From the NCBI GenBank assembly GCA_963804165.1, contig CAWDPO010000045.1, positions 32,001 to 96,000 of the forward strand: a DNA stretch of 64,000 nucleotides, in the 5' to 3' direction. The notes under the pieces were generated by a model, which was not told the origin of the DNA, did not search any database, and was given only the letters and a program-made list of their open reading frames with translations. Shown piece after piece: positions 49,144 to 63,864 of this stretch. Source of the DNA: an uncultured delta proteobacterium. GTDB taxonomy: Bacteria; Desulfobacterota; Binatia; UBA9968. Position 1 is the first letter of the stretch, and the number at the start of each line of letters is the position of its first letter. Position numbers and translations under genes: made by a program.

Positions 49144-50873
49144 TTACACCTCCACACCGTAATGGGAAGGGAAATTTGGAAGCGGGCCCCGTGGCCAGCT
49201 TCGCTGGAAACACTGATCGTTCCGCCGTGGGCCTCTATAATCCTGCGGGAGATCGCCAGACCCAGCCCGGTACCCTTCGCCTTAGTCGTGAAGTAAGGCT
49301 CGAAGATACGCGGGTAGTTTTCCGGCGCAATCCCGGTTCCAGTGTCGGTGACGCTGATCAAACAATTGTCCTTTGACGTTTTCGCCTCCAGCGTCAAGGT
49401 TCCACCTTCGGGCATCGCTTGCAGACCGTTAAGAATAAGATTCAAGAGCGTTTGTCTGAAATATTCACGGTCCGCCTTGAGCGGCGGCAGAGTCAGCGGA
49501 GTAACAACTCGGATGTGCACCTTCGATTGCTGAGCTTCGCCTTCCACCAATATGGCTAATTCATTAAGGACATCCTGCACTGACAACTCCTCACGTTTGA
49601 TTTCGAGAGGGCGCGCCAGCGAGAGGAATTGCTCCACTATCGAGTTGAGGCGGTGCACTTCGCCGAGCATGAGTCCAGTAAGGCGAGAGTAGTCCTCCGG
49701 ATCATCGGTTGGGTAAAATTCCACCTTGAGACGTTGCAGTCCCATCGAAATGGCGTTGAGCGGATTTCTGACCTCGTGCGCGACCGCCGCAGCCAGGTTT
49801 CCTAGTGCTGAAAGGCGCTCTCTCTGTAACACTTCAGCCTCCAGGGCTTTGACCTCGAGCATATGAGTATGCTGGTTATGAAAAATCGCCGCCATGCCCA
49901 AAATCCCCGCGCCTAGGATCGCCAAGCCGAGAATAAGGATGGCGCGCACGCTATTGCGCCAGGCGATCACCATCGTTCCCAGTGACAGACCGATCTTGAG
50001 GAAACCCAAATTGGCTTCATCCAGTGCCACAGGTTGCACCACCTCAAGGTACCGTTTTCCGCCATCGCTCTCGACGATTTGGCTGAAAAGCTGACGGTCG
50101 ACTTTGGCTTTCAATACCAGCGGCTCTTTTTCCTGCTGCCCGATCCGGCGCCGGTCAGTATGCGCTATAACATTCAGGTCGCTATCGAGAAAAGCGACGA
50201 ACTCACTGTCCGATTGGCGGCCAAGATCCTCGATCTGGCGTTGCACTCCGATCGCTTTCTCGAAGTTGAAAATATAATCCGCGTTGGCATGGATCGCGAT
50301 GATGCCTGGAAAACTACTCGCGCCCACGGCGACGCCGAAGGCGCTGCCTTTCCAGAATTCTTTATCCTTGAAGCCCGGCGGCGGTTGCCCCGTCTTTTCC
50401 TCGGCTTTTTCCGTGGGCAGCCGCCAGCGCTTTCCCCACGCGTAGCTTATCGTTGGGCGCTGCGGCTGAAAGGTTTCTTCTCGCGCTTTTTGCCGTGCTA
50501 TCATCGCCGGCAGCGCGGCAAGTTTCCAGGGCCGGCCCTGCTCATCGAGGAGATCGATTTTTTGCAGGCGGTTCATCGCACTGATCTCTTTAAGCAGTGC
50601 CTCGTCGACATGACGGGAGAGCAGCAGTTGATCGATCAGCCGGGCATTATCCACCAAACGCTGCCGGATCAGATCCTCCAACAGGGCGTTGCCGACAATG
50701 GCATTTTTAACACTGGTCTCCATGGCCTTTGCCAATGCCGTCCCCTTGTCCTCAGTCTGGCGCAAGAGTTCTTGCTGAAGCCGCCGGGCTTCAAAAAAAA
50801 CATAGAGGGATGCCAAGATGAGAAGTAGCAGACCCGATGCGAGAAAGTGGCGTGGTAGAAAAACCCTTCGCAT
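49116..50873 (-). CDS. membrane sensor histidine kinase
   Basis: two TM helices around a periplasmic domain; AHEVRNPL, NGLQAM, DTGTG, GTGLGL. Confidence 0.93.
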   Translation of the reverse strand: MRRVFLPRHFLASGLLLLILASLYVFFEARRLQQELLRQTEDKGTALAKAMETSVKNAIVGNALLEDLIRQRLVDNARLIDQLLLSRHVDEALLKEISAMNRLQKIDLLDEQGRPWKLAALPAMIARQKAREETFQPQRPTISYAWGKRWRLPTEKAEEKTGQPPPGFKDKEFWKGSAFGVAVGASSFPGIIAIHANADYIFNFEKAIGVQRQIEDLGRQSDSEFVAFLDSDLNVIAHTDRRRIGQQEKEPLVLKAKVDRQLFSQIVESDGGKRYLEVVQPVALDEANLGFLKIGLSLGTMVIAWRNSVRAILILGLAILGAGILGMAAIFHNQHTHMLEVKALEAEVLQRERLSALGNLAAAVAHEVRNPLNAISMGLQRLKVEFYPTDDPEDYSRLTGLMLGEVHRLNSIVEQFLSLARPLEIKREELSVQDVLNELAILVEGEAQQSKVHIRVVTPLTLPPLKADREYFRQTLLNLILNGLQAMPEGGTLTLEAKTSKDNCLISVTDTGTGIAPENYPRIFEPYFTTKAKGTGLGLAISRRIIEAHGGTISVSSEAGHGARFQISLPITVWRCKCPIVSVFS

Positions 50874-50912
50874 GGATGAAATGATTATAGTCACGATTGC
50901 TTGCTAATATGC

Positions 50913-50948
50913 AACGACCCCCAGGGCCGGTTGGTCCCAGGGGTCGTT
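50913..50948 (-). terminator. hairpin between the OmpA gene and the kinase
   Basis: AACGACCCC...GGGGTCGTT. Confidence 0.5.
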
Positions 50949-51006
50949 CGTTACTTTACTTCTCTGGCTTTAAGATTTGCTCTGCCAGAATGATCGATCT
51001 TGCCCG

Positions 51007-51909
51007 TTATCGGCTCGCTGTGTCCGTGCGGAATCCCACGTCGACGCGGCGGTCGCGCTGCCAGCAAGCGTCAGTCGATTCGTTGCACAGCGGTTTTTTC
51101 TCACCGAAGGCGCTGGTCTGGATCTTATCGCCCGCAACGCCGGCCTTAACCAGCGCGTCACGAATGGCGTTCACACGACGTTCGCTCAGACCCTGGTTGT
51201 GTTGGTCGGTGCCGCGCGCATCCGCGTAGCCGCCGATACCCACATTCATAGGCGCATTCTGCTTGACGTGCGCCGCGATGTCGGTGATCTTGCTCATTTC
51301 ATTCGAGCGGATGTCCGACTTATCGGTGTCGAACAGGATATCCTTGAACGCCGCCGTATTGTTTCCCGTACCGAACGAGAACATACGATTCTCCGAAACA
51401 GCCATGGCTTGAGGGCCTATCGGTCCGGCTGGACCTTGCGCGCCCGTGGCGCCGGCTGGGCCGCGTTCACCTGCTAGGTTAAACGGGCCGGCGAACTCGG
51501 TCACGTAACCGAACTGATCGACGCGAAGGTTGCGCGTCTCAGACGCCGAGTTTTTCGCGTCGATGGAATACTCCACCGAATAGAAGGATTGATGCCTTCC
51601 GGTGGCCGGGCTGTCGATCTTGTAGCATACGGTGCTATACCCGCCGCCGTAGCCAAGCGGCCGCACTACTTTGAAGCCGGCCAGGTTCTTATCCGCATAC
51701 TGTTGCGCCAAATCCCGCGCTTGATCCTCGCTTATCTTCTCCTTGGTAACCCGGAGCTGGGGACAATTCGAACTGGCGACCAATTCATGGCTCATGCCGC
51801 CCATCCAACCCTTTGCGTCACCTTCCCTTTGAGCCGTGGCCACACCGGACAGCGCCAAGATGCCCGCTGCCGTGACCATCGGCGCTAAAACAAATCTTAA
51901 TCTCTTCAT
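51007..51909 (-). CDS. secreted OmpA-like peptidoglycan-binding protein with collagen-like linker
   Basis: signal peptide; seven Gly-X-Y triplets; ILFDTDKS, GYADARG, NQGLSERR, DRRVD. Confidence 0.88.
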   Translation of the reverse strand: MKRLRFVLAPMVTAAGILALSGVATAQREGDAKGWMGGMSHELVASSNCPQLRVTKEKISEDQARDLAQQYADKNLAGFKVVRPLGYGGGYSTVCYKIDSPATGRHQSFYSVEYSIDAKNSASETRNLRVDQFGYVTEFAGPFNLAGERGPAGATGAQGPAGPIGPQAMAVSENRMFSFGTGNNTAAFKDILFDTDKSDIRSNEMSKITDIAAHVKQNAPMNVGIGGYADARGTDQHNQGLSERRVNAIRDALVKAGVAGDKIQTSAFGEKKPLCNESTDACWQRDRRVDVGFRTDTASR

Positions 51910-51952
51910 AACTTTTTTCCTCCACTAAAATTTTTGCTAAACGATCTCCAGC

Positions 51953-51967
51953 GCAACTGTTGTGCCG
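51953..51967 (-). promoter_or_regulatory. sigma54 promoter P1
   Basis: CGGCAC-AACAG-TTGC. Confidence 0.8.
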
Positions 51968-52050
51968 CGCCTTGGCACCAGACAAAGGTGACTTTCTCTA
52001 AACATTCCGAGACAAACTGCGGAGAATCGAAGAGCAGCGACGGCGCAAGC

Positions 52051-52075
52051 GTCGAAAACTTCGACCAAACGGTCG
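52051..52075. promoter_or_regulatory. putative bEBP enhancer (UAS) copy 1
   Basis: GTCGA-AAACT-TCGACC-AAAC-GGTCG. Confidence 0.8.
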
Positions 52076-52126
52076 TTCCGTCGATTTACGAACTCGACGT
52101 TCTTTCCTGGCTTAATCATCGGCTGT

Positions 52127-52342
52127 TCAAGCCGGCTGATCTTCAAGCCGAAAGCCGAGCTTGACAGTAACCTGAAATTCCTTGACTTTGTCCTTATCAA
52201 CCAGCCCGCGCATTTCAGTCACCTCGAACCAGTCGACATGGCGTAGTGACTGACAAGCCTTCGCCACGGCGTTTTGGGTGGCTTCGCCAAAGCTGGTCTC
52301 AGAGATGCCGACGATTTCAATTTTCTTGTAAGTCCGTTCCAT
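52127..52342 (-). CDS. dodecin (flavin-binding)
   Basis: YKKIEIVGIS, WFEVTEMRG, FQVTVKLGF. Confidence 0.93.
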   Translation of the reverse strand: MERTYKKIEIVGISETSFGEATQNAVAKACQSLRHVDWFEVTEMRGLVDKDKVKEFQVTVKLGFRLEDQPA

Positions 52343-52372
52343 GTGGCTTTCCTCCTCAGGCTTGTTTTTTTA

Positions 52373-52963
52373 TCATCGCGCTGCTACGCGCTTCTCTTCG
52401 ATGATAACTTGCCTCGGCTCCTTTACCTCAAGCAGTTCATCGAAGAGGGCGCGGTAATGCACAACCGCCTTGCGCAGCTCTTCGGTGTCCGCCGAGCCCC
52501 GCTGATCGGCCACAGCGATGGCCTGCGCCGCTCGGTAATTGGCCACAACGTCCGGGTGATCGACTGAAATGTCGCCCGCACGGCGCTCAAAATCACCCAT
52601 GGGGTAACCTCGCTTTTCCATCAATTCCCGAACCAACTGTTCGGCTTGGACGACCACTCCCTTGGGGTTGTCGACGAATCGGCTCTGTAATGCTTGCCAG
52701 GCCTCAGTGAATCTGGCGGCTTCCGGCGGCGCCAGAGGGAGAATCTCCAGCCGCTCGACGCGCTTTTCGCGCGCCTTGAGCTCCGATTCGCCCTTGGTTC
52801 GACCGCCTAATTCATTCACGGTTCGGCCGTATTCCGGGCCGAAGCGTTCTTGGAGCTTATGGGATTGCTTTTTTTGGTAGAAGAACGCGGCCCCAAGTGC
52901 AACCAACCCTAGGACCACAACGGCCGCAATTATAATCCACGTTTGTGTGTCTAACGTTTCCAT
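52373..52963 (-). CDS. membrane-anchored hypothetical protein
   Basis: N-terminal TM; LQERFGPEY, RFVDNP, TEELRKAVVHYRALFDEL. Confidence 0.8.
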   Translation of the reverse strand: METLDTQTWIIIAAVVVLGLVALGAAFFYQKKQSHKLQERFGPEYGRTVNELGGRTKGESELKAREKRVERLEILPLAPPEAARFTEAWQALQSRFVDNPKGVVVQAEQLVRELMEKRGYPMGDFERRAGDISVDHPDVVANYRAAQAIAVADQRGSADTEELRKAVVHYRALFDELLEVKEPRQVIIEEKRVAAR

Positions 52964-53054
52964 CTGTACCTCCGTTTTTGATTTGATCGCTCGCTATCTT
53001 TGAATTAGTTGTCTCTATCTTGCTTCTTTTAATTCATGGTAATCATCAAACCCT

Positions 53055-53729
53055 TCACGCCAATTTCCTCAAAGCGTTGATTCTCTCTTCGGTTCCCGGG
53101 TGTGTAGATAAGAAACCACCACCACTGTCCCCTCCCGAGGTCCGCGTCAGCCAGGTCAGCGTGTCGATCATTACCTCTTTGGAATGACCGGCTCGACGCA
53201 AGATCTCGACACCGTGACGGTCCGCTTCCAACTCCTCTGAGCGGCTGTAGCTGTTTGCAATGAGCGCCCCCGCGATCGGGGTCACCGCGCTACTGCCCGG
53301 TATGAGCTGTTCGAGCAGAATTACGCCGATGTTGAGACCTGTACCCAAAGTCTGTGCTCTGGCCACGTGGCCAAGATCATCGTGAGCAATCTCGTGCGCC
53401 AGCACGCCTCTCAATTGCTCGTCGTTGGCCTTTGCAAGCAGCCCGGTCGTGACTTGAAACTCGCCGCCTCCCGCATTGGCGGCGTTGATGTTTGGATCGT
53501 CAATTACCCGAACTCGTATTTCATTTGAACGGCGCGGGTTAGTCGTCGCGCGCAGCAGCGGCAGCATGATCCGCTGCACTCGCTCCGTCTGCCTCGGATC
53601 GAGCGGACGGCCGGCCGAAGAGCGCGGTGTTTGTTGTGGGGCTGGCCCTCGCGATGAACTGGTCTCCAGCACGCAACCCGTTGTCGCCGTGGCGAGAATC
53701 AAAACTGCTATCATTCGAAGGAATCTCAT
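53055..53729 (-). CDS. M48 family metallopeptidase lipoprotein
   Basis: TGC lipobox; INAA, LAHEIAH, YSRSEELEAD, LSTHP. Confidence 0.9.
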   Translation of the reverse strand: MRFLRMIAVLILATATTGCVLETSSSRGPAPQQTPRSSAGRPLDPRQTERVQRIMLPLLRATTNPRRSNEIRVRVIDDPNINAANAGGGEFQVTTGLLAKANDEQLRGVLAHEIAHDDLGHVARAQTLGTGLNIGVILLEQLIPGSSAVTPIAGALIANSYSRSEELEADRHGVEILRRAGHSKEVMIDTLTWLTRTSGGDSGGGFLSTHPGTEERINALRKLA

Positions 53730-53912
53730 CGCTTCCCCGTCATCGGATCAAGCAACCCCGAAGGTAAATCGGTCAACGGTTGTCCCGAAGAAAACTGTCC
53801 ACCTCAAATCGTTCGCGATCGAGGAATCTTCCCTCGACTCCGACGTAATCCCCGAACCGAAGCGCCGGCGTTCTATTGAATTGGAAACCTATCCTGACTC
53901 CCGAGGGATTGC

Positions 53913-53928
53913 CGTCCAGTATTAGACA
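53913..53928. promoter_or_regulatory. putative Crp-family box E
   Basis: CGTCC-AGTATT-AGACA; minus-strand TAGGTT at 53891-53886 (centre -41.5). Confidence 0.78.
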
Positions 53929-53974
53929 GGATTGAAAAAATATCGGAGAAGTCCCCCTCGCGAGGCTCCGGGGG

Positions 53975-54049
53975 CTACCTCAGTCCCAAATAACCGGCGA
54001 CGAAAAGCACCACCACGATAACTCCTACAATGTAGAAAATATTATTCAT
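53975..54049 (-). CDS. 24-aa single-TM microprotein (not in ORF track)
   Basis: GGAGG RBS; MNNIFYIVGVIVVVLFVAGYLGLR. Confidence 0.75.
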   Translation of the reverse strand: MNNIFYIVGVIVVVLFVAGYLGLR

Positions 54050-54149
54050 GTCAGTTTCCTCCTTTCTTTGCGTGATCGGATTTTACCGTTGAGCCAGATG
54101 CCCATAGCATCACTCCGAGAAAGGGCAGTCGAGATCATCGCTCGATGTC

Positions 54150-54290
54150 TTACTGTCCGCTGAGACTCAATGGAATTTCAAGTTGAGTGATATTATTCGG
54201 AACGGGGTCCTGTTTCCTTGGAGGTACGTGGCCACAGTTTATGCAATAAAACTCTGGAACAATATAATTTTGGCAACGCGGACACTTCAT
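54150..54290 (-). CDS. 46-aa zinc-ribbon microprotein (not in ORF track)
   Basis: MKCPRCQNYIVPEFYCINCGH... with two CxxC; first gene behind sigma54 promoter P2. Confidence 0.7.
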   Translation of the reverse strand: MKCPRCQNYIVPEFYCINCGHVPPRKQDPVPNNITQLEIPLSLSGQ

Positions 54291-54349
54291 AGTTTTATTT
54301 CCGTTTCCGTCTTATTTCGTTCTTTACGCTATGTGTGCTCTATCGAAGA

Positions 54350-54364
54350 GCAGGTTGTGTGCCA
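54350..54364 (-). promoter_or_regulatory. sigma54 promoter P2
   Basis: TGGCAC-ACAAC-CTGC. Confidence 0.8.
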
Positions 54365-54446
54365 GACCGGTGGTAAGCAAAAGAGTGGATTTCGATTGAA
54401 TTTTTTAGGCTTTCAGGATGGAGAAGAGATGAGGCTCGTCAAGACC

Positions 54447-54471
54447 GTCGAGACCTTCGACCAAAAGGTCG
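54447..54471. promoter_or_regulatory. putative bEBP enhancer copy 2
   Basis: GTCGA-GACCT-TCGACC-AAAA-GGTCG. Confidence 0.8.
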
Positions 54472-54944
54472 GACTCGACTATTTCGTTCTGCGACTGTTT
54501 TTTCTTTCACGATGCGAGGTGATGTAGATCTCCAGTCTTCGCCAACCGGGTGTAGTAGTTCGTAATTGATTGATAGACACATAATCAGCCACTTCGCCTT
54601 TTTAGATGGAAGGCATCATCAGGGAAGGTCTCACGTGGCGTCGGGCAAGAAAAAAGATGAGCTACGACACAATCGAGAATCTCGCTTAGTTCTGTAGGGA
54701 GAACGAGGGCGTCGCCTTCCTTTTCTCATTCGTGCCCGACCGGATCGCGCAGTTCATCAAATCGAGATCTATCAGCCCGCCGGATCGTTCAATGCCGACC
54801 AGCCTATGCCAGACCTCTCTGGAAGACGTTCGCAGTCCGACATTCGTATAGTAAACTGCAGACAAGCCCCTGCTTCACTGTTTTTTTTAACGCGGCCGGC
54901 GCAGTCTTGGAAAAGAGGCGATCAGCGTCGAGGCCAGCTTGGAA

Positions 54945-55295
54945 TTACGCCAGTGTATGGTGCGGAATTTCCGACGGAGAAGGGTGTGTGGTCTTGAATA
55001 GCGCCTTTTCCGCTTCGAGTTCTTGGACCCGGTGTTCGAGATCCGCTACCGTATGTTTGGTTTTTTTCATCGCGCGATCTTTTCCGTAGATGGTGAGCGT
55101 GGAGGAAACCGACCTAGCAAAATAGAGAATCCATGCCATGAAGAGCCCAACAAACAACGACCCCACGATAACCAGATACAAGGGGACATCATCCCAGACA
55201 TATTCATTGAGTCGGATCGTAACCGGGCTAATGTTTTGCATTCCAAAGTAAGCGATCGCGACGCCGGAAATAACTGCAACAAGTAATACCAACAT
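54945..55295 (-). CDS. LapA/DUF1049 domain membrane protein
   Basis: FGMQNISPVTI, VPLYLVIVGSLFVG, coiled-coil tail. Confidence 0.8.
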   Translation of the reverse strand: MLVLLVAVISGVAIAYFGMQNISPVTIRLNEYVWDDVPLYLVIVGSLFVGLFMAWILYFARSVSSTLTIYGKDRAMKKTKHTVADLEHRVQELEAEKALFKTTHPSPSEIPHHTLA

Positions 55296-55375
55296 ATTTT
55301 TCTAACCTTCTTTCTTTTGCCTCAGAGTCTATCGATATTCGGCATTTTATTGCGAAGGGCTCAGCGGTCCTTCTC

Positions 55376-55549
55376 TCAGGACTGTGGATCCTTTTGTCGG
55401 GTCGCGGTCACGCCATGGACGATCGCCAGGCCGATCAGACAGAGAATGCCCACCCCGATCCACTGCATCGGCACGTGGAGCAGATTGGCTCCGATCGCCA
55501 GGCCGGCGATCAGTATGATGTATCCGACCAGGTAAATTCCAAATGACAT
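55376..55549 (-). CDS. 57-aa two-TM small protein (not in ORF track)
   Basis: AAGGAG RBS; MSFGIYLVGYIILIAGLAIGANLLHVPMQWIGVG...TRQKDPQS. Confidence 0.78.
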   Translation of the reverse strand: MSFGIYLVGYIILIAGLAIGANLLHVPMQWIGVGILCLIGLAIVHGVTATRQKDPQS

Positions 55550-55681
55550 GGGTATTTCTCCTTGACTACTACTTTTATTGAATTTTCTTCCCGTAAGCCC
55601 CTTTTTTCCTGACCCGAGAATAAAGCGACTCGGCAGGATTTCTTGCAGGTAAATGCGATAGGGTTGGGCGGCACGGCCATC

Positions 55682-56362
55682 CTAGGCAATCTGCGCGAGG
55701 TAATCGGTGAGTTTGTTTTCCTTGATGATGAGAAAATGATCGCTATTGGTTTCGATCAATCCCAGGTTGCGAAATCGCTGCATGAAGAAGCTGATCCGAG
55801 GCCGTGTCGTGCCCACCATCGCGGATAATTCTTCATGGGAAATCTTCAGCTCGATGCGAATACTGCGCGGATCTTTCTTGCCCATGGTGCGGGCCAATTG
55901 CAGCAACGTCTGACCCAGCCGTTGCTCGCTGTCCGCCGTCACCAGATTGGCGATGACGTGCTGTTGGTCGGCGATACGAACGGCCAGGTAGCGCACGAAT
56001 CCCTCAGACAAGGAGTCGCGGTTTAAGCGCGCAAAGAACTGGGCACAGGGTATTTGTTTTAACGTCGTTGGTTTCATCGCCACCGCAGTTTCGTGCCGCG
56101 CCCCTAACCCGGATAAGCACAGCTCGCCGAAAACATCTCCGCTGCTATGGATGGCCAGCAGACATTCTTTACCTTCGGGCGAGAGCAGAAGCAGCTTGAT
56201 CTGGCCGGTCTCGATGAAATAGACCATCTCGTCCTGGTCGCCGCAGGTGTAAACATTCGCGTGCCGTGCGAACGTCACAGGACGAGAGTTCAGCGTCTCG
56301 TGCTGCAACGAATCGCGCATTTGCTCTTTGAAGCGTTCCGCTTCGGGAGTCTGTTGAATCAT
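55682..56362 (-). CDS. Crp/Fnr family transcriptional regulator (second paralog)
   Basis: closely similar to 36766-37455; HTH GTTRPRISFF. Confidence 0.93.
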   Translation of the reverse strand: MIQQTPEAERFKEQMRDSLQHETLNSRPVTFARHANVYTCGDQDEMVYFIETGQIKLLLLSPEGKECLLAIHSSGDVFGELCLSGLGARHETAVAMKPTTLKQIPCAQFFARLNRDSLSEGFVRYLAVRIADQQHVIANLVTADSEQRLGQTLLQLARTMGKKDPRSIRIELKISHEELSAMVGTTRPRISFFMQRFRNLGLIETNSDHFLIIKENKLTDYLAQIA

Positions 56363-56421
56363 GGGTCGCGTTTCCGACTAATGGCGCTGAGCCCAATCTC
56401 CGGCGCTCTTTTGAACAAGTA

Positions 56422-56450
56422 ACCTCAGGAGTGAAACCCTATGCCTTAAA
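56422..56450. repeat. 29-bp direct repeat copy 1 (probable promoter)
   Basis: ACCTCAGGAGTGAAACCCTATGCCTTAAA; 28/29 identical to 63393-63421. Confidence 0.8.
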
Positions 56451-56484
56451 TTCCTCTAACCTTTCTTGCATGCTTGCGACCCCT

Positions 56485-56634
56485 TTAAAGCCGGCCGGTC
56501 AAGAGCAGAACAACCACGATCAGCAGAACGACACCAGCGAGACCCGAGGGCGCAAAGCCAAATTTGTGAAAACCCCAGTTCGGTAGACCTCCCACCAGAA
56601 ACAGAAGCAATACGATCAACAGTATCAGGCTCAT
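56485..56634 (-). CDS. DUF3309 family small membrane protein (not in ORF track)
   Basis: MSLILLIVLLLFLVGGLPNWGFHKFGFAPSGLAGVVLLIVVVLLLTGRL. Confidence 0.88.
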   Translation of the reverse strand: MSLILLIVLLLFLVGGLPNWGFHKFGFAPSGLAGVVLLIVVVLLLTGRL

Positions 56635-56680
56635 AGTCAGTTACCTTCTTTCGATTTTTCTTTTCTCAATGACGATAGGA

Positions 56681-56695
56681 GCAGCTTACGTGCCA
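56681..56695 (-). promoter_or_regulatory. sigma54 promoter P3
   Basis: TGGCAC-GTAAG-CTGC. Confidence 0.8.
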
Positions 56696-56778
56696 GTTCC
56701 CACGGTCAGGAAGAGACTGCATTTCGCGAGGGATTATTTAACGCTCCGGGGAAATCGGAGGGACGGTTCGGCGAAAGA

Positions 56779-56803
56779 GTCGAAACGATCGACCAAATGG
56801 TCG
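56779..56803. promoter_or_regulatory. putative bEBP enhancer copy 3
   Basis: GTCGA-AACGA-TCGACC-AAAT-GGTCG. Confidence 0.8.
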
Positions 56804-57088
56804 AGTTACCTAGCGCGGCAGGGCTGCAACCAAAAAAACAGGGGATTCACCATGAAGGCACCAAGGACGCGAAGGGTTTGAATCATTTAAGTTTCAAGCT
56901 TCGTGCTCTTTCGTTGGGCACGGAAAATTGCGCAAACCGCGTAAACCTCCAATTAGGGTAGTACGGCAAACTACTGTGGTCAACGCGACAGCAGCGTAGG
57001 TCCGGAAAGTGGCGGCCGAGAATTTTGCTCGTTGGGAAAAAAACGACGAGCTCGATAGATTCTTAGTAAAGAGACGAATCAAATCAGA

Positions 57089-57136
57089 ATCAGCGTCCCC
57101 GCCGTATGCGTTTCGATATACGACGGGAACGCTGAT
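57089..57136 (-). terminator. hairpin downstream of the Q-rich gene
   Basis: ATCAGCGTCCCCGCCGTAT...ATACGACGGGAACGCTGAT. Confidence 0.55.
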
Positions 57137-57176
57137 CCATGGGGCGTTGTTTGTTTAGCGCGCTAACCTCTCGTCG

Positions 57177-58346
57177 TCAGCGAAGATCCTGAAAATTGAG
57201 GATTTGTGACAAAATGGTTTCCAAGATGGAAGGGTTTCCATCAGCAAAGCGGCCGTATTGATATCGGCTATTGTAGCCATCTTCATAACCACGGCGGAAG
57301 CCCTGACGGAAGTAGTAATTGTAGTCGCGCCGGTCTACGTAATAGCCACTGTAACCGTAGTTTGCGTCCCGATAGGCATAAGAGTCCTTGTAGTTGGAAC
57401 CCCAACGGTCGTCCCGGTCTGCCCTTCCGGCGCGGAAGCCTTCTTCATAGCCATAGTTCACCGCCTGCCGCAGCGTCTTCGCGCCGTATTCGTTCGTTTC
57501 GTAGTAGTTGCTGCCGCCACGATTGTAACGATAGATCGGCGCCGTGTAGAAGTACGGGTCATGATCGTAATCGAACCGATTGTCCCGGAGATGGATCTGC
57601 TGCTGACGCACGCGCTCTAAATACTGTTCCTGAAAACGATACTGCGCGACGCGCTTTTGTTGCTTTAGCAGCGCTGCACGCTGTCGTGCGAGACGCTCCT
57701 GCTGTTCCAGATGCTGACGGTACTGCGCCACCCGTTGTTGCTGTTGATCAATAAGCTTTTGTTGCTGCTGCTGTGACAGACGCTCTTGTTGTCTCTGTTG
57801 TTGAATTTGGTCTTGCCTCTGCTGTTGCTGCGCGCGCTGTTGTTTCTGGATTTGCTCGGATTGACGCTCAACCCGCTCTTGCTGCTGCTGTTGTCGCGCT
57901 TGCTGTCTTTTGTTCTCTGCTGATTTTTGCTGAACGCGCTGTTGCTGCTGCTTCTGGTCCTGTTTCTGCTTTTTGCTGCTCCGCTCTTGCTGCTGTTGTT
58001 GCTGCTGAACGCGATGTTGCTGTTGCTTCTGGTCCTGCTCTGATTTTCGCTGCGCGCGCTCCTGCTGCTGGTCTTGTTTCTGCTTTTGCTCTTGCTGGTG
58101 CTGTTTTTGCTCAACGCGCTGTTGCTGTTGCTTCTGGTCCTGCACTGATTTTCGTTGCACGCGCTCTTGCTGCTGCTGGTTTTGTTTCTGTTTTTGTTCT
58201 TGCTGCTTTTCATGCTGATCGCGCTTTTGCTCTTTTTGCTCTTCCTGCGCTTCTCGTTGTCCATCGGCCGCTGTACTGATTCCCGCCAATGACAGGGTGC
58301 TGATGACAAGCGCCATCACCATCCGATCTAAGATATTAATTTTCAC
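57177..58346 (-). CDS. secreted glutamine-rich coiled-coil protein with Tyr/Gly/Arg-rich C-terminal domain
   Basis: GTG start after AGGAGGAG; signal peptide; about 200 aa of Q/K/E/R repeats; GYEEGFRAG and GFRRGYEDGY. Confidence 0.85.
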   Translation of the reverse strand: MKINILDRMVMALVISTLSLAGISTAADGQREAQEEQKEQKRDQHEKQQEQKQKQNQQQQERVQRKSVQDQKQQQQRVEQKQHQQEQKQKQDQQQERAQRKSEQDQKQQQHRVQQQQQQQERSSKKQKQDQKQQQQRVQQKSAENKRQQARQQQQQERVERQSEQIQKQQRAQQQQRQDQIQQQRQQERLSQQQQQKLIDQQQQRVAQYRQHLEQQERLARQRAALLKQQKRVAQYRFQEQYLERVRQQQIHLRDNRFDYDHDPYFYTAPIYRYNRGGSNYYETNEYGAKTLRQAVNYGYEEGFRAGRADRDDRWGSNYKDSYAYRDANYGYSGYYVDRRDYNYYFRQGFRRGYEDGYNSRYQYGRFADGNPSILETILSQILNFQDLR

Positions 58347-58468
58347 GGTACTCCTCCTGGTGTTTCGGGCATGTAAATTTGAGATAAAGCGTAAGTATGA
58401 TTATTTCTGCGAGTCGCTAAACCTCGATGCCTTTATTTCTATAGGATACGTCTTCTTAGAAGACTCAC

Positions 58469-58484
58469 AGTTCATTATTGGACA
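58469..58484. promoter_or_regulatory. putative Crp-family box F (imperfect)
   Basis: AGTTC-ATTATT-GGACA; minus-strand TATCCT at 58448-58443 (centre about -40.5). Confidence 0.6.
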
Positions 58485-58537
58485 AAGTGCTAAAGAATTA
58501 TGCTGATTAGACTCTCCATATGATCCGTTCAAACCTA

Positions 58538-58765
58538 TCAATGCAGTAGCACAGTTCCGGGAAAGTGCCGGTCGGTGATTTCCCTTTCGAGGGAAGCCCC
58601 GTTCAGCAACTCAACTAAAATCACACGGGCGAGATGATAGGCCTCTCTTGTATCGGCGGAATATTCAAAGGCGAACTCGCTGACCGTCGCCATAAGGTCT
58701 TCCAACCTAGGGTTGATACTGTTATCGCTACGGTTTGTTTTCACGGCGATTATCCTTTCACGCAA
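58538..58765 (-). CDS. hypothetical protein
   Basis: 75-aa ORF co-oriented downstream of the SOD gene; start uncertain. Confidence 0.5.
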   Translation of the reverse strand: MRERIIAVKTNRSDNSINPRLEDLMATVSEFAFEYSADTREAYHLARVILVELLNGASLEREITDRHFPGTVLLH

Positions 58766-58799
58766 AAAGCTATTGATCGTCGTTCAGTTTGCGACCCGG

Positions 58800-59459
58800 C
58801 TAACCCGTGATGATGTAGTCGAACTGTTCCTGGACTTTCTTCCAGTTCACCACGTGCCACCAATGAGTAATGTATTCGGGTCGCTTGTTGTGGTACTTGA
58901 GATAATACGCGTGTTCCCAAACATCGAGACCTAAAATGGGCAGCTGGCCGTTTGATAACGGATTATTCTGGTTCGCCGTTGAGCCAATCTCCAAGTCCCC
59001 CGTGGACGTCACGGAAAGCCACGCCCATCCGCTGCCCGAGCGATTTTTGGCAGCGGTGTCGAACTCTTCTTTGAATTTAGCGAATCCGCCAAACGTCTTT
59101 GTAATCGCCCGTGCCAGCTTGCCCTCGGGCTCATCGCCGCCCCGTGGCGTCATGTATTCCCAGAATAACGCGTGATTGAGGTGTCCGCCGCCGTTGCGTT
59201 GCAATGGCGTCCTGATATCGGCAGGCAACTCGTTAAGATGAGCCAATAGGGTCACGAGATCTGTTTTCTGCAGCTCAGGATATTTGCCGACCGCTTCGTT
59301 GGCTTGATCGACATAAGTCTGATGATGCTTGTCATGATGCAAATGCATCGTTTGTTCGTCGATGTGCGGCTCGAGCGCATCATACGCATAATCGAGCGCT
59401 GGCAGGGTATACGGATAATCCATATGCGCCGTTTGATAGAGCAAGAGTTTGTTGTTCAT
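58800..59459 (-). CDS. sodA: superoxide dismutase, Fe/Mn family (Mn-type signature)
   Basis: LHHDKHH, NGGGHLNH, GSGWAWL, DVWEHAYY. Confidence 0.93.
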   Translation of the reverse strand: MNNKLLLYQTAHMDYPYTLPALDYAYDALEPHIDEQTMHLHHDKHHQTYVDQANEAVGKYPELQKTDLVTLLAHLNELPADIRTPLQRNGGGHLNHALFWEYMTPRGGDEPEGKLARAITKTFGGFAKFKEEFDTAAKNRSGSGWAWLSVTSTGDLEIGSTANQNNPLSNGQLPILGLDVWEHAYYLKYHNKRPEYITHWWHVVNWKKVQEQFDYIITG

Positions 59460-59574
59460 GGCGTAAACCTCCTGTGTCGCTTTAGCCGATCCGAGTTAGT
59501 TTCCCGACTGAGAAAAACGTCGGCGACTCTCCAATGTCTGTCTCCTGTTGCATCGGCGCGCCTCGCCACGTCCC

Positions 59575-60795
59575 TTACGTTGAAACATGGCGAGCTCGAA
59601 CCGGTAGTTCCCGGCTAACCCGCGGCACTGATGGCTCTCGACTGCATGCCCGGTCGAAGCTCTGCAGGTAGCGGCGCGCGACCGCGGGCCAGACCATGCT
59701 GCGGCCGTGAGCGGCGGCGCGTGCGCAGAGGGCCGATCGTTTGGCATCATCGCTCAGGAGATCCACGACCTCGCGTGCGATGGTTTGGGAGTCTCTCCAC
59801 GGCACGAGGATACCGCGCCCGTCGGCGAGGAGTTCGCGCGCATAAAGATAAGGCGTGGAGATGACGGCTTTGCCGGATCCTACCGCGTAGGCCAACGTCC
59901 CGGACGTGCTCTGCTCAGGCTTGAGGTACGGCGTTACATAGATATCGGCGGCGGAGAGAAACTTGACGAGTTCGCCGCGGCTCACGAAACGATTGTGAAA
60001 GATCATGCTGGATTCCACGCCGAGCCCTTGAGCCCGACGCTCCAGACTTTCGCGGTAGTTTTCGCCGTATTGCTCTTTGATATGTGGATGGGTAGCTCCG
60101 AGCACGACGTAGACCGTGTCCGGGTATTGCGCAAGAATCGCGGGCAGCGCGTCGATGACATGCTCGATACCTTTGTCCGGCGATAGCAGGCCGAATGTAA
60201 AAATCACCGACTTGCCTTCGATCCCGAGCTCTTTCTTAGTGCTTGAAGCGAACGGCACGCTCGGAATCCCGTGCGGGATGATATCGATTTTCTGCTCGGG
60301 TACGCCGTGAACATTATGGAGGAGAGCGGCGCCGTGGGCGCTCATGACGACGAGCCGCCGCGAAAGTCGGGCGATCTCATTCATCGCTCGACGCTGCATG
60401 GAATCCGGCTCGCCGAGGATGGTGTGCACGGTGGTCACGATCGGCATGCGCAATCTGCGCAGGAGCGTGAGCAGGTAGCTACCGGCGTTGCCGCCGAAGA
60501 TACCGTACTCGTGCTGCACGGACACGACATCGATCTTGTTGGCGTTCAAATAATCCGCTGCGACGCGGTACGACGCAATATCACTCTCGGCCACCTCGAA
60601 GCGGACCCGCGGCGGATACGCATAACGTTTGCCGGCGTCGTTCATCGCGACCACGAAGCAATCGGCATTCGAGACCTCCGCCGCCACCGCTCTGCTGAGA
60701 TCGGTGGTAAAAGTAGCGATGCCGCATTGGCGCGGCAAGTGATTGCCAAGGATCGCGATTCGACGAACCGTTCCCGCGATGGTTCCGTGGTTCAT
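59575..60795 (-). CDS. glycosyltransferase family 4
   Basis: PRQCGIATFT, QHEYGIFGG, FGLLSPDKGIE, SGTLAYAVG. Confidence 0.9.
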   Translation of the reverse strand: MNHGTIAGTVRRIAILGNHLPRQCGIATFTTDLSRAVAAEVSNADCFVVAMNDAGKRYAYPPRVRFEVAESDIASYRVAADYLNANKIDVVSVQHEYGIFGGNAGSYLLTLLRRLRMPIVTTVHTILGEPDSMQRRAMNEIARLSRRLVVMSAHGAALLHNVHGVPEQKIDIIPHGIPSVPFASSTKKELGIEGKSVIFTFGLLSPDKGIEHVIDALPAILAQYPDTVYVVLGATHPHIKEQYGENYRESLERRAQGLGVESSMIFHNRFVSRGELVKFLSAADIYVTPYLKPEQSTSGTLAYAVGSGKAVISTPYLYARELLADGRGILVPWRDSQTIAREVVDLLSDDAKRSALCARAAAHGRSMVWPAVARRYLQSFDRACSREPSVPRVSRELPVRARHVST

Positions 60796-60993
60796 GATTC
60801 CTCCCACCGGAGAAGTCTCGCGATCAGATCCGTCCCCTGATCATCTGTATTCCAAGCAAAATCGCGACGAGTACGACTCCGAGTATTAAAAACAAGCTCG
60901 CCATATCAATTTCCTCCTAACCCACTTATTAGAAATTGATCCGCGGTCATTTTCACCACGACATTGCGGTGCTGTGCGGCCTCTCAAGCGCCG

Positions 60994-61224
60994 CTAGAAT
61001 GACTTCCTGGAGCCAACCGCGACCAGCGCGGCGCCACTCACGAGCGCCAACCCTATCAACAGCGGTGACATCGGGATGGTCTTCTGGGTGTCAACGGTGG
61101 CTTTTAGGGGACCGATGTCGATGACCTTCTCGCGGCTCGTGTAAGGGATTCCGCGGTAGGCAAACGCGACAATGCTGAGAACGATGAGAGCGATTCCCAC
61201 AAGCGTTATTGCACTGATACGCAT
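60994..61224 (-). CDS. DUF3185-like small two-TM protein
   Basis: YTSREKVIDIGPL...KTIP.SP between two TM helices. Confidence 0.82.
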   Translation of the reverse strand: MRISAITLVGIALIVLSIVAFAYRGIPYTSREKVIDIGPLKATVDTQKTIPMSPLLIGLALVSGAALVAVGSRKSF

Positions 61225-61256
61225 AATATTTCTCCTTCGTCTTTAAAGCCGAAACG

Positions 61257-61409
61257 CTAATCAACTCGATACCGCTGCATGTGATGGATCCCGAGCGCCA
61301 CCAGAGCGCCGATCAGCGTAATTTGGATGAATCCGCCGATCATTGTAGGGGAATCGAGTATTCCCACTACGCCCAGGACCGAAAGCATCGCAAAGATAAG
61401 CCAAAGCAT
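61257..61409 (-). CDS. lmo0937-like small membrane protein (not in ORF track)
   Basis: GAGGAG RBS; MLWLIFAMLSVLGVVG...IGGFIQITLIGALV. Confidence 0.7.
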   Translation of the reverse strand: MLWLIFAMLSVLGVVGILDSPTMIGGFIQITLIGALVALGIHHMQRYRVD

Positions 61410-61452
61410 GGTTCAGCTCCTCAATCTTCTGGAAAGCCCGCTGTTGAAATTC

Positions 61453-61755
61453 CTAGCCCCCCAGGTTTTCTCGCCTGTTTTCCTGATAGCCCTGCTTTTC
61501 GGCTTCCGTTGAGTGATCGACCGAATCGGAGCTCTTGCAATCCATGAGCTTCTTTCCCTGTTGCACGATCACGTCGGCAGTCTCGCGCAGCTTGCCTGCC
61601 TGCTGATTCAGGTAGTCCAGACTTTTACCGCCGCGTTCACGGAGCACCTCGCGCGTCTCTTTACGGCCGAGAATCGCGGCCATTAACCCGCCGACGGCTC
61701 CCAGACCTAGACCGATAAGTAAGTACGAAAATTTCGATTCGCCGTTCGTTGCCAT
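61453..61755 (-). CDS. YtxH-like general stress protein
   Basis: LIGLGLGAVGGLMAAIL..KETRE.L followed by helical tail. Confidence 0.8.
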   Translation of the reverse strand: MATNGESKFSYLLIGLGLGAVGGLMAAILGRKETREVLRERGGKSLDYLNQQAGKLRETADVIVQQGKKLMDCKSSDSVDHSTEAEKQGYQENRRENLGG

Positions 61756-61799
61756 AAATTTCTCCTCTTAGAAAACTCTCGCGTTGGAACAGTCCGTCT

Positions 61800-62111
61800 C
61801 TAACGCTTGATAACTTGCAGATTGTTGACTACCCGTTTGACGCCGCTCACCTGCGACGAAACCGATCCGATGTGGGACTTCTGCTCGCCGGTCTCGACTT
61901 CGCCGGTGAGATAGACAATGCCGTTATTGGTCTCGACTCCCACTCGCGACAGGGTGACAAGCTTGTCTGTAGCAAGTTTAGTCTTTACGGACGAAGTAAG
62001 AGCTCCATCATCGAGGTTTTGTCCCATGGTCTCGCCGGTCATCGCCTGGCAACCGCTCATGAAAAAAAGAACTACCAACGTACCTGCCAACATTTTAAAT
62101 TTCCGGATCAT
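61800..62111 (-). CDS. BON domain lipoprotein (OsmY-like)
   Basis: lipobox MSGC; DDGALTSSVKTKL, VET.NGIVYLTG, GVKRVVNNL. Confidence 0.92.
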   Translation of the reverse strand: MIRKFKMLAGTLVVLFFMSGCQAMTGETMGQNLDDGALTSSVKTKLATDKLVTLSRVGVETNNGIVYLTGEVETGEQKSHIGSVSSQVSGVKRVVNNLQVIKR

Positions 62112-62178
62112 AAATATCTCCTCACTAGTTTTGAAATGTTTGTTTTCTTGCTCAGCGCGTATAGTGACTCTCTGTCAA

Positions 62179-62397
62179 TTAATTTCTTTCCCAGTCCGAG
62201 TCCCTCCGATCCGGTCGCGAGTAACCCGCGCCGCGGTAAGGATCTCCATCCCAGCGGCGATCGTTCTTGTCATAGCTGCTCCCGACCCTGTCGTATCCGC
62301 TGTAATCGCCACGACGATTCCACTCGTAACATCCACTCGAAGCCAGCACGAAGCTGGCCGCGACAATTCCGTACATGGCCATTCCGAATGTGTTCAT
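62179..62397 (-). CDS. small lipoprotein with R/D/G/Y-rich tail
   Basis: AAGGAG RBS; SSGC lipobox. Confidence 0.7.
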   Translation of the reverse strand: MNTFGMAMYGIVAASFVLASSGCYEWNRRGDYSGYDRVGSSYDKNDRRWDGDPYRGAGYSRPDRRDSDWERN

Positions 62398-62462
62398 CGA
62401 ACTCTCCTTTTGCCGCAACGCTTCCCTGTGGATCGGCTCGAGCATCCCGATCAGCAAACCCG

Positions 62463-63089
62463 CTAGCGATTGTCCCGGAGAAAACTCTCTAGCTCGAATC
62501 GGTCGCGACTCGTGAACCGCCCTTCGACTCTGATGTAGTCACCGGCCCGCAGCGCGCGAAAACGATCCACGTCCGACCGCCGCGCATTGTTTGGCAAAGA
62601 AACAAAAAGACTCTGTCTGGACTGATCGCTCAATTCGAACGAGCTCTGCTGAAAGTTTACATGCTCCACTCTGCCATCGAGTGTTTGCATCGCCGTTGGC
62701 GGTTGACCGGCAGCGCCACGATCCGGATTCCGATCCCTTATACTTTCGTGGACGCGCACGAGATCCGTATACGAGTTGCCGCGTGAGTCCTGCCTCAGCT
62801 GCATGGAGACCTTATCGCCGCTCTCCAATTGGGCGACCGGATAGTCTCGGCCGCGATAAAGCGCACGGGCCTCAGTGCTATAACCGACCACCCGCTTGCG
62901 GCTGTCGTTCGGTCGCAAATGAATCTCCCGAGACGAAGTATCTATTCGGTCGATCTCTGCGAAGAGCTCGTCTTGATCCAATTGCAGCGTAGGTCTGCCC
63001 ACCAGGGCGATGTTGTCGCTGCAACCTGCGCTCATCGTCAACGCCAAACCGAGAATCACACAGGACGCCGCACGATTGAATGGATTCAT
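62463..63089 (-). CDS. lipoprotein with two OB-fold-like repeats
   Basis: SAGC lipobox; LESGDKV and LRAGDYIRVEG. Confidence 0.75.
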   Translation of the reverse strand: MNPFNRAASCVILGLALTMSAGCSDNIALVGRPTLQLDQDELFAEIDRIDTSSREIHLRPNDSRKRVVGYSTEARALYRGRDYPVAQLESGDKVSMQLRQDSRGNSYTDLVRVHESIRDRNPDRGAAGQPPTAMQTLDGRVEHVNFQQSSFELSDQSRQSLFVSLPNNARRSDVDRFRALRAGDYIRVEGRFTSRDRFELESFLRDNR

Positions 63090-63099
63090 AATTTTGCTC

Positions 63100-63327
63100 C
63101 TAATAAAGGATCGACCCTTTTTCTAGCTGCGATTTACGAGTTTCGTATTCTTTGCGGGATATTCTCTCGGCTTTGTAATCATCCTCGAGCTGGTTCATCT
63201 TGCTATGGGCGTTGATTTCGTAACCAGCGCTTGTGCCCAGGGCTCCCACCGCCGCTCCGCCCAAGAACGCACAGCCGCTTTGACTGACACCGATCAAAAG
63301 CACTAACACCAACATTAACTTTTTCAT
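63100..63327 (-). CDS. small glycine-zipper lipoprotein
   Basis: SGC lipobox; GGAAVGALG; AAGGAGG RBS. Confidence 0.8.
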   Translation of the reverse strand: MKKLMLVLVLLIGVSQSGCAFLGGAAVGALGTSAGYEINAHSKMNQLEDDYKAERISRKEYETRKSQLEKGSILY

Positions 63328-63392
63328 CGCAACCTCCTTGGGTTGGACTGAGTAGGAGGGTTAAGTCAGGCTTACTTGAAGAATTTCAAGCG

Positions 63393-63421
63393 ACCTCAGG
63401 TGTGAAACCCTATGCCTTAAA
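63393..63421. repeat. 29-bp direct repeat copy 2 (probable promoter)
   Basis: ACCTCAGGTGTGAAACCCTATGCCTTAAA. Confidence 0.8.
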
Positions 63422-63547
63422 CATCTTGAACGATACGCTGACGAGTTAGAGAGTACTGTCTAAAAAGAGACCAATTAAAAAAGAAATGTCTTGAGGCCGG
63501 GACTTTTGCTCAAGGGGCTTTTCCACCGATATCTCTGGCCATATTTG

Positions 63548-63694
63548 CTACAATTTCTTCTTCACGGCCTCGGCCGCGTCCTGAGTCTTTTCGCCCGCCC
63601 GCTCAACGTCCTGGCCGAAACCGCGCACCGTGTTGCAAGCCACGTTCGTGCCTAACAGGACCAACATCAGTGTTGCGAAGATTATCGGGCGCAT
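63548..63694 (-). CDS. entericidin A/B family lipoprotein
   Basis: VACNTVRGFGQDVERAGE. Confidence 0.92.
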   Translation of the reverse strand: MRPIIFATLMLVLLGTNVACNTVRGFGQDVERAGEKTQDAAEAVKKKL

Positions 63695-63741
63695 GGCGTA
63701 TCTCCTATTTGGATTCAACTTTCTAACACCAATCATGTGGA

Positions 63742-63756
63742 GCACTTTCTGTGCCT
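63742..63756 (-). promoter_or_regulatory. sigma54 promoter P4
   Basis: AGGCAC-AGAAA-GTGC. Confidence 0.75.
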
Positions 63757-63839
63757 GATTTTGCGATGAGGAAAAGGCTGTGTTTCCGCTAGCTTCCCGA
63801 GACTGTCTGACGGAAACGAAGAAACGGCTCGTTAAAAGC

Positions 63840-63864
63840 GTCGAAACTCTCGACCAAAGGGTCG
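63840..63864. promoter_or_regulatory. putative bEBP enhancer copy 4
   Basis: GTCGA-AACTC-TCGACC-AAAG-GGTCG. Confidence 0.8.

Follow-up and report, generated by a model that had tools for sequence, protein, structure and literature searches.

The 64,000-nucleotide window analysed here (the whole stretch C45:32001-96000, from the genome of an uncultured soil bacterium of the class Binatia) contains four copies of a 25-bp motif, each at a nearly fixed distance of eight helical turns upstream of a sigma-54 type promoter element, and the genome contains eight such pairs, all on one strand of the same contig. Judged from their sequence, these pairs are probably the enhancer-promoter units of a sigma-54 regulon driven by the neighbouring two-component activator, whose gene lies at 47722-49143 of the window. 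The parts of this reading differ in strength. That the units are sigma-54 enhancer-promoter units appears highly probable, that the neighbouring regulator binds them appears quite probable, and that they form an envelope or general stress regulon appears moderately probable. The window belongs to a 7.5-Mb assembly of 46 contigs (81% complete, 55.8% G+C), in which contig C45 accounts for 310 kb. Motif, pairing, spacing, conservation, gene content and regulator co-occurrence were read directly from this assembly and from related genomes.

Motif-promoter pairs in the window and the genome

The motif GTCGA-N5-TCGACCAAA-N-GGTCG was found by exact matching on the plus strand of the window at 52051, 54447, 56779 and 63840, the four positions given in a preliminary description of this DNA. 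Further copies were absent from the window even at two mismatches, and 100 shuffles gave 0 matches. The four units around these copies, P1 to P4, all read on the minus strand. The P1 enhancer occupies 52040-52075 (25-mer 52051-52075), and its sigma-54 type -24/-12 element GGCACAACAGTTGC lies at 51953-51966, 84 bp below the 25-mer. The P2 enhancer is at 54436-54471 (25-mer 54447-54471) with the element GGCACACAACCTGC at 54350-54363, 83 bp below; the P3 enhancer is at 56768-56803 (25-mer 56779-56803) with GGCACGTAAGCTGC at 56681-56694, 84 bp below; and the P4 enhancer is at 63829-63864 (25-mer 63840-63864) with GGCACAGAAAGTGC at 63742-63755, again 84 bp below. These distances, taken from the 25-mer to the upstream edge of the -24/-12 element, reproduce the 84, 83, 84 and 84 bp to a minus-strand GGCAC-N5-nTGC described earlier, while the promoter edge coordinates given there were one base higher than those we measured. 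The four elements are the only matches to GGCAC-N6-TGC in the window. Their number is within chance (shuffle mean 2.71; at least four in 32 of 100 shuffles), and the non-random part is the pairing of the motif with the promoter, not the promoter count. All four read GGCAC-N5-nTGC, with the GG and GC doublets ten bases apart in a sigma-54 promoter context. They are intergenic, each on the strand reading towards its gene, and Shine-Dalgarno-like sites and start codons follow 43-59 nucleotides below the GC (37-59 nucleotides over the six exact sites of the genome).

The preliminary description had called the motif four-copy and had proposed a genome-wide scan for the motif paired with a -24/-12 element. 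Four is correct for the window, whereas the genome holds eight pairs, all on one strand of C45. Exact matching detected the motif six times, always on this contig and on the same strand, and two more sites appeared once the spacer separating the second half-site from the third was allowed to vary from 4 to 7 bp, so that the eight comprise six of the N5 form and two of the N6 form. The eight pairs run from C45:83966 to C45:107450 on the minus strand, within 24 kb (the island), with spacings of 83-86 bp; all eight sites are intergenic, and every promoter has at most one mismatch to GGCAC-N5-TTGC. Since GGCAC-N6-TGC occurs 265 times in the 7.5 Mb, both strands together, simple arithmetic puts the chance of a promoter match in a 5-bp slot behind a given motif at the order of 1e-4. 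Three near-matches to the motif outside the island (on contigs C13, C14 and C3) had no promoter. The genome encodes one rpoN (a PF04552 match in an open frame of 495 amino acids).

An alignment of 42 distinct sites, taken from this genome and from related ones, has near-invariant positions at tCGACC-n-TTTGGTCGA and, after a gap of 5 bp (in rare cases 4 or 6), at TCGAC, which is followed by a conserved gcTTtc-gaCG whose CG is almost invariant. Both halves of the enhancer conform to TCGAC-N6-GnCGA with a T-rich centre. From this alignment the predicted enhancer is two tandem 16-bp dyads, a strong distal and a weak proximal one, with centres 21 bp (two turns) apart. At P1 the distal dyad is CGACC-GTTT-GGTCGA and the weaker proximal one TCGAC-N6-GcCGt. 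The 'two overlapping palindromes' of the preliminary description are better described as two tandem 5-N6-5 dyads, with the palindrome GTCGA-N5-TCGAC at their junction. In the two N6 sites of the genome the proximal half-site is still 84 bp from the GG. The distal dyad alone was found 11 times in the genome, against about 0.3 expected from base composition, and seven of these are in the island. The four extra exact distal dyads (C4:134031, C10:208061, C13:72486 and C14:19332) lie inside long open reading frames (ORFs) with no -24/-12 element downstream.

The spacer between enhancer and promoter is also patterned. An element made of an A-tract, GAAA and CCTTT occupies 51981-52009 (minus strand) at P1, 15-43 bp upstream of the GG, and the same element is present on the minus strand at P2 (54378-54406), P3 (56709-56737) and P4 (63770-63798). 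Counted from the GG, the pattern is anchored to the promoter, with a T-tract at about -61, A-tracts at about -40 and -29 and a T-tract at about -18, and the A/T-rich clusters recur every 10-11 bp or so. Such a spacer is probably bent or bendable, either through intrinsic curvature or as a site for a protein of the HU/IHF family, of which the genome has three genes. Comparison by eye with the Escherichia coli consensus gave no clear match to an IHF site in the spacer.

Conservation and the neighbouring regulator

The 25-mer was found with at most one mismatch in 11 of 40 relatives, where its copies are clustered on one strand (nine in G019, six in G015, five in G014 and four in G018). Loci fetched from 17 genomes or records contained 57 distinct motifs when up to two mismatches and a spacer of 4-6 were allowed. 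Promoters, for which GG and GC were fixed and one other mismatch was tolerated, accompanied 52 of them, and 51 of these stood at 82-86 bp: 84 bp in 27 cases, 85 in 11, 83 in seven, 86 in five and 82 in one, the last promoter being at 43 bp. Of the five motifs lacking a promoter, three are accompanied by a weaker GG-N10-GC at the usual distance, a fourth looks decayed and the fifth is without any. The first genes behind the motif recur in the relatives, and the genes of the island are kept in G019, G014, G015 and G484 and partly in G018. A third, sister family of the order has the variant TCGAC-GGAAT-(G/C)GTCGA-N6-TCGAC at 64, 74, 75, 76, 76 and 86 bp from the promoter (six distinct loci; L119 and L210 are identical). 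These spacings differ in steps of about one helical turn, a series that would fit an activator confined to a single face of the helix. Both this family and a paralogous system described below have the distal dyad with an inverted centre (AAAT or GAAT, against nTTT), as would be expected of a dimer site. In a draw of 400 genomes of the phylum, the combined pattern was found in 0 of the 398 genomes outside the order (12 of the same class and 386 others), and the sole match of the draw, G331, is from the same family as the source genome.

P1 faces the operon of the regulator itself, which spans 47722-51909 on the minus strand and encodes an OmpA-like protein, a kinase and the regulator. The first gene (51007-51909, minus) specifies a secreted OmpA-domain protein of 300 amino acids, whose conserved N-terminal domain belongs to no known family and is accompanied by Gly-X-Y repeats and an OmpA_C-like peptidoglycan-binding domain. 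The sensor histidine kinase (49116-50894, minus) has a transmembrane helix, a periplasmic domain of about 277 amino acids, a second transmembrane helix, HisKA and HATPase_c, and is a periplasmic sensor with no cytoplasmic input domain. Its best NCBIfam score was for ZraS (256 bits, cut-off 479), followed by AtoS (245, cut-off 646). The last gene of the operon (47722-49143, minus) encodes a response regulator and enhancer-binding protein of the NtrC family with Response_reg (107 bits), Sigma54_activat (241) and helix-turn-helix HTH_8 (51) domains; together with GAFTGA and Asp55 in its translation, these confirm the GAFTGA-containing response regulator noted earlier at this position. AtoC was its best match (540 bits, cut-off 714) and ZraR the second (443, cut-off 760). 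Because both proteins score below the equivalog cut-offs for ZraSR (NF007689, NF007688) and AtoSC (NF008469, NF008468), the pair is, on these scores, a relative and not a member of the AtoSC/ZraSR clade.

The motif accompanies this regulator through the order. Orthologues, defined by E <= 1e-150, were sought in the 122 other genomes of the order and separated cleanly from other proteins (65-88% identity, against at most 48% for the next matches); a locus search with the regulator as query returned generic relatives alone, at 41-56% identity and from many phyla. In G018, G019, G014, G004, G015, G022, G029, G027 and G484, 2.5-4 kb separate the orthologue from the motif upstream of it, the variant motif precedes the orthologous operon in the third family, and each of the three families of the order thereby has a motif before the regulator's own operon. 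Orthologue and combined pattern occurred together in 49 genomes, the orthologue only in 20, the pattern only in seven and neither in 46, of which G005 is one (69 genomes with the orthologue and 56 with the pattern in total); since kin are not independent, the presence of the orthologue in 49 of the 56 motif-bearing genomes is a pattern and not a statistical test. Two of the exceptions are artefacts. In G484 the kinase (81% identical) and the regulator stand directly behind a P1-type site, and the regulator was missed by the genome search because its gene is broken into three reading frames; the G017 contig stops within the kinase gene. At the G484 locus (L217:9836-13965) the OmpA-like and the regulator genes each align in three differently framed pieces, by frameshifts or assembly indels.

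In nearly every genome of the third family there is a single site, located at the autoregulated operon, and the neighbouring regulator is the simplest candidate for the binding protein because the sole site of this family is at its own operon. Both the recognition helix SERALRYKL.KYG and the TCGAC half-sites are invariant in the three families, which agrees with the assignment, if weakly. A second regulator, a paralogue of 70% identity, is encoded in two relatives (G014:C4:419853-423745 and G015:C5:1050093-1051469). The site upstream of the G014 paralogue has the same half-sites with the inverted centre and a 4-bp spacer (CGACC-AAAT-GGTCGA-N4-TCGAC), and the same inverted centre occurs with a 5-bp spacer in G006, G016 and G482.

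The regulator operon does not open with the same gene in every lineage. A secreted Gly/Met/His-rich protein of 128-153 amino acids, which has a conserved domain in common with the N-terminus of the OmpA-like protein, is encoded first in the second family and in some other Binatia. The third family begins the operon with a protease of the HtrA/DegP type (L210:9118-10596, minus; L213:4236-5711, plus; L212:9401-10873, minus); the presence of Trypsin_2 and two PDZ domains was confirmed in L210 and L213, and L212 was judged by sequence likeness alone. For the accessory N-terminal domain, no Pfam family was found at E <= 1 and a Foldseek search against PDB returned nothing at E <= 0.001. Its model consists of one helix and four strands, with a predicted local distance difference test (pLDDT) score above 75 only at residues 61-125; its matches in a protein atlas were unnamed clusters, apart from one PepSY cluster at 0.79 that is no more than a lead.

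Genes behind the promoters

The annotation of the window gave the same first downstream genes as the preliminary description, namely the OmpA protein, a zinc-ribbon microprotein, DUF3309 and entericidin. All genes listed here are on the minus strand. The P2 genes (52373-54290) begin with a 46-amino acid CxxC...CxxC zinc-ribbon-like microprotein (54290-54150; Zn_ribbon_3 at 19.3 bits, cut-off 27), followed by an M48 peptidase (53729-53055) and a membrane-anchored protein of 196 amino acids and no family (52963-52373). The P3 genes (54945-56634) encode the DUF3309 microprotein (56634-56485), a Crp/Fnr-family regulator (56362-55682) and a LapA-domain protein (55295-54945). The genes behind P4 (57177-63694) were grouped as co-directional. 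Entericidin comes first (63694-63548), followed by a 75-amino acid glycine-zipper lipoprotein (63327-63100), a 208-amino acid lipoprotein (63089-62463), a BON protein (62111-61800), a YtxH-like protein below the Pfam cut-off (61755-61453), a 76-amino acid membrane protein (61224-60994), a GT4 glycosyltransferase (60807-59575), an Fe/Mn superoxide dismutase (59459-58800) and a Gln-rich protein of 389 amino acids (58346-57177). The last of these is secreted, consists mostly of Gln/Lys/Glu/Arg repeats with a Tyr/Arg/Asp-rich C-terminal part, and has no Pfam family; partial relatives (178-179 amino acids aligned, 75-88% identity) are encoded in four related islands.

Four further promoters lie beyond the window, also on the minus strand. 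The fifth (GG at C45:96659) precedes a half-size DUF3309 protein of 26 amino acids (23.9 bits, cut-off 22.3). This microprotein (L035:525-602, minus, which is C45:96525-96602) matches the first half of DUF3309, and its gene again comes first after the enhancer in the loci fetched from G019, G003, G015 and G014. The sixth (GG at C45:98424) is followed by a 137-amino acid secreted protein, CsbD and a low-affinity iron permease; this unit (L035:2244-2411, minus, which is C45:98244-98411) has an unusually long leader of about 150 nucleotides, for which there was no Rfam match. The seventh (GG at C45:103146) precedes a 60-amino acid membrane protein, CsbD and a ferritin-like protein, and the eighth (GG at C45:107339) a 41-amino acid membrane protein and a class A penicillin-binding protein (PBP1A).

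Taken as families, the island holds entericidin, two DUF3309, BON, YtxH-like, two CsbD, two ferritin-like, superoxide dismutase, M48 peptidase, LapA-domain, OmpA-like, low-affinity iron permease and PBP1A proteins. Entericidin, DUF3309, BON, both CsbD, Ferritin, Sod_Fe, Peptidase_M48, LapA_dom and OmpA were above the Pfam cut-offs, and YtxH was below. RpoS was not found above its cut-off in this genome, which is 81% complete. Rfam and tRNA scans found nothing; terminator-like sites numbered 32 (23.1 +/- 5.4 in shuffles) and sigma-70-like sites five (10.4 in shuffles). In a search of sequencing runs, the runs found contained only 0.07-0.11 of the sampled words. The genes of the OmpA-like protein, the 196-amino acid ORF, the zinc-ribbon protein, the Crp-family protein and DUF3309 are covered by contigs, 90-99% alike, from four soil RNA libraries; these contigs reveal no transcription starts, and uncovered stretches prove nothing.

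Alternative readings, proposed circuit and known systems

The preliminary description had taken the motif for the binding site of the regulator at 47722-49143 and for the mark of its regulon. The parts of this proposal that sequence can test are supported, by the single rpoN, the intergenic promoters, the conserved spacing, the synteny and the co-occurrence. Several observations weigh against it. PF00158 has 34 matches in the genome, 28 of them full-length at E <= 8e-64, so that about 28 other full-length enhancer-binding proteins are available, and for this reason the assignment of the regulator rests on synteny and co-occurrence, not on binding specificity. The recognition helix is of a type common in the family and does not single out this regulator, and the site of the paralogue, with its identical half-sites, suggests that the half-site need not be private to one protein. 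Five genomes (G003, G466, G507, G509 and G033; 66-96% complete) have the motif and no orthologue that we found, and 20 genomes with the orthologue lack the exact pattern. The stress role is read from family names, several genes being without a family and YtxH and Zn_ribbon_3 scoring below cut-off. Two of the soil RNA-library contigs (from runs X14 and X19) extend unbroken across the P1 promoter and enhancer (window 51787-52097); transcription continuing out of the upstream operon in a relative would produce such contigs, as would DNA in the library, and they lend no support to a start at P1.

Some of these points would be explained if the enhancer were real and bound by one of the approximately 28 other enhancer-binding proteins, with the neighbouring regulator controlling something else. 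The many paralogues, the generic type of the helix-turn-helix and the five motif-bearing genomes with no orthologue found speak for this. However, the 310-kb contig has no PF00158 gene other than the regulator, the motif precedes the orthologue's own operon in all three families, the only genomic site of the sister family is the regulator operon, and the orthologue accompanies the motif in 49 of 56 genomes, and we consider a different enhancer-binding protein improbable. The dyads or the spacer element could also be the sites of a different kind of factor, such as the Crp/Fnr-family regulator behind P3, acting as co-activator or repressor while the enhancer-binding protein bound elsewhere or acted from solution. 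A Crp/Fnr-family gene does lie inside the island and is kept in the islands of G019, G014, G015, G018 and G484, and the 5-N6-5 and 5-N4-5 dyad geometries are usual for this family. Yet dyads and phased spacer persist in the second and third families, where no Crp homologue was found within about 8 kb of the operon, and a location 100-125 bp or so upstream of a -24/-12 promoter is that of an enhancer, which makes such a factor quite improbable.

The likeness of the eight cassettes to one another begins at the enhancer and extends into the 5' untranslated region, with a mean pairwise identity of 0.24 upstream of the enhancer, 0.35 at -72..-45 and 0.45 at -44..-12, compared with 0.25 for random genome windows. 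A duplicated or mobile promoter cassette, whose copies persist by descent and do not serve as one regulon today, is a very improbable explanation of the units: they are alike beyond the core motifs, but the likeness ends at the upstream edge of the enhancer, dyads and -24/-12 elements are near-invariant while the rest drifts in genomes where the identity of orthologous regulators is no more than 71-88%, the spacing stays constant within 2 bp, and all sites are intergenic and face genes.

For a sigma-54 regulon under the neighbouring regulator we propose the following circuit, in which binding, activation, signal and stress induction are predicted. The periplasm-sensing kinase (49116-50894) would phosphorylate the NtrC-family regulator, dimers of which would bind the tandem dyads tCGAC-CnTTTG-GTCGA and TCGAC-gcTTtc-gaCGa, centred 21 bp apart at about -126 and -105 from the transcription start. 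The bound dimers would assemble into an AAA+ ring, which would be brought into contact with the closed sigma-54 holoenzyme at GGCAC-N5-nTGC through a loop in the spacer; the helical phase of the spacer is fixed, and phased A/T tracts or a protein of the HU/IHF type probably pre-bend it. The first unit would drive the regulator's own operon, giving positive autoregulation, and the seven others would drive co-directional operons of small envelope or stress proteins. The ancestral role was probably an envelope-stress response, because the kinase is periplasmic and the lineage-specific first genes encode secreted proteins and HtrA/DegP; in the lineage with large genomes, this response would have grown into a general-stress-like island. 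A broader proposal is speculative and, taken whole, rather unlikely: in Binatia a sigma-54 two-component activator, and not a dedicated sigma factor, might be the master switch of the general (osmotic, desiccation, oxidative and envelope) stress response, its regulon having grown from a single autoregulated htrA-kinase-regulator operon, a state that the sister family retains, as a rigid enhancer-spacer-promoter cassette some 130 bp long was copied to the front of up to nine operons, most of which open with a membrane microprotein.

Entericidin, BON/OsmY-like, CsbD, YtxH, ferritin/Dps-like, superoxide dismutase and glycine-zipper lipoprotein families are members of the RpoS, SigB and EcfG regulons. 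The island is similar in gene content to these regulons of E. coli (RpoS), Bacillus (SigB) and Alphaproteobacteria (EcfG), whereas its predicted control, a two-component enhancer-binding protein with sigma-54, contrasts with the dedicated sigma-70-family factor used there. It suggests how a bacterium with no recognisable RpoS may organise a general stress set.

In its signalling proteins the Binatia system resembles ZraPSR (HydHG) of E. coli and Salmonella and the ZraSR-like DVU3381-3384 of Desulfovibrio vulgaris, all of which combine a periplasm-sensing kinase with a sigma-54-dependent regulator of receiver, AAA+ and helix-turn-helix domains. This likeness, as that to AtoSC, was judged by protein scores and gene context. 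ZraPSR is described as autoregulated, linked to the gene of a periplasmic protein and read as an envelope stress system with a very small regulon (PMC7657598); in E. coli the regulon named there comprises zraP, zraSR and perhaps mgtA, against eight promoters here. Unlike that of ZraPSR, the linked periplasmic protein of the Binatia system has no Pfam family. In D. vulgaris, sigma-54 two-component regulators for envelope and general stress are reported to control one to three operons each, and enhancer-promoter distances vary widely (PMC4641369), in contrast to the constancy within 2 bp over more than 50 promoters found here. AtoSC of E. coli includes the best match of the regulator, AtoC, but the island is without acetoacetate genes. 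Nla28 of Myxococcus xanthus is described as a two-component enhancer-binding protein that acts on its own promoter and on at least a dozen promoters of starvation and stress genes, recognised through tandem 8-bp direct repeats at mostly intragenic targets (10.1101/2021.11.28.470282), compared with the clustered, intergenic, fixed-spacing dyads of the island.

The mechanism is a standard one; the novelty lies in the site, the regulon, the host lineage, the rigid cassette and the apparent expansion from one operon to eight or nine. A term search of the text of a 2025 comparison of sigma-54 regulons returned no mention of Binat*, general stress, entericidin, OmpA or Desulfobacterota. Judged by title or abstract, no regulatory study of Binatota was found in the searches aimed at this phylum, nothing related was found that links sigma-54 with CsbD and entericidin, and the literal motif gave only unrelated primer-like matches among the best 10 of 269. 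For an uncultured phylum, the predicted binding site, the regulator and the eight promoters constitute a testable regulon, and the cassette could be put to use as a compact sigma-54 expression module with a tight off state.

At glnAp2, NtrC uses several dimer sites on one helix face, about 100-140 bp upstream of the -24/-12 element, and acts by looping that depends on helical phase. NorR at norV is reported to have three essential sites (PMC2831303). The Binatia enhancer is predicted to be like both in having several sites on one helix face upstream of a -24/-12 element, and differs from them in its half-site TCGAC, in its rigid spacing and in the one-turn steps of the sister family. The spacings of 82-86 bp in one family and of 64, 74-76 and 86 bp in another provide a natural series for the helical-phase rule of enhancer looping.

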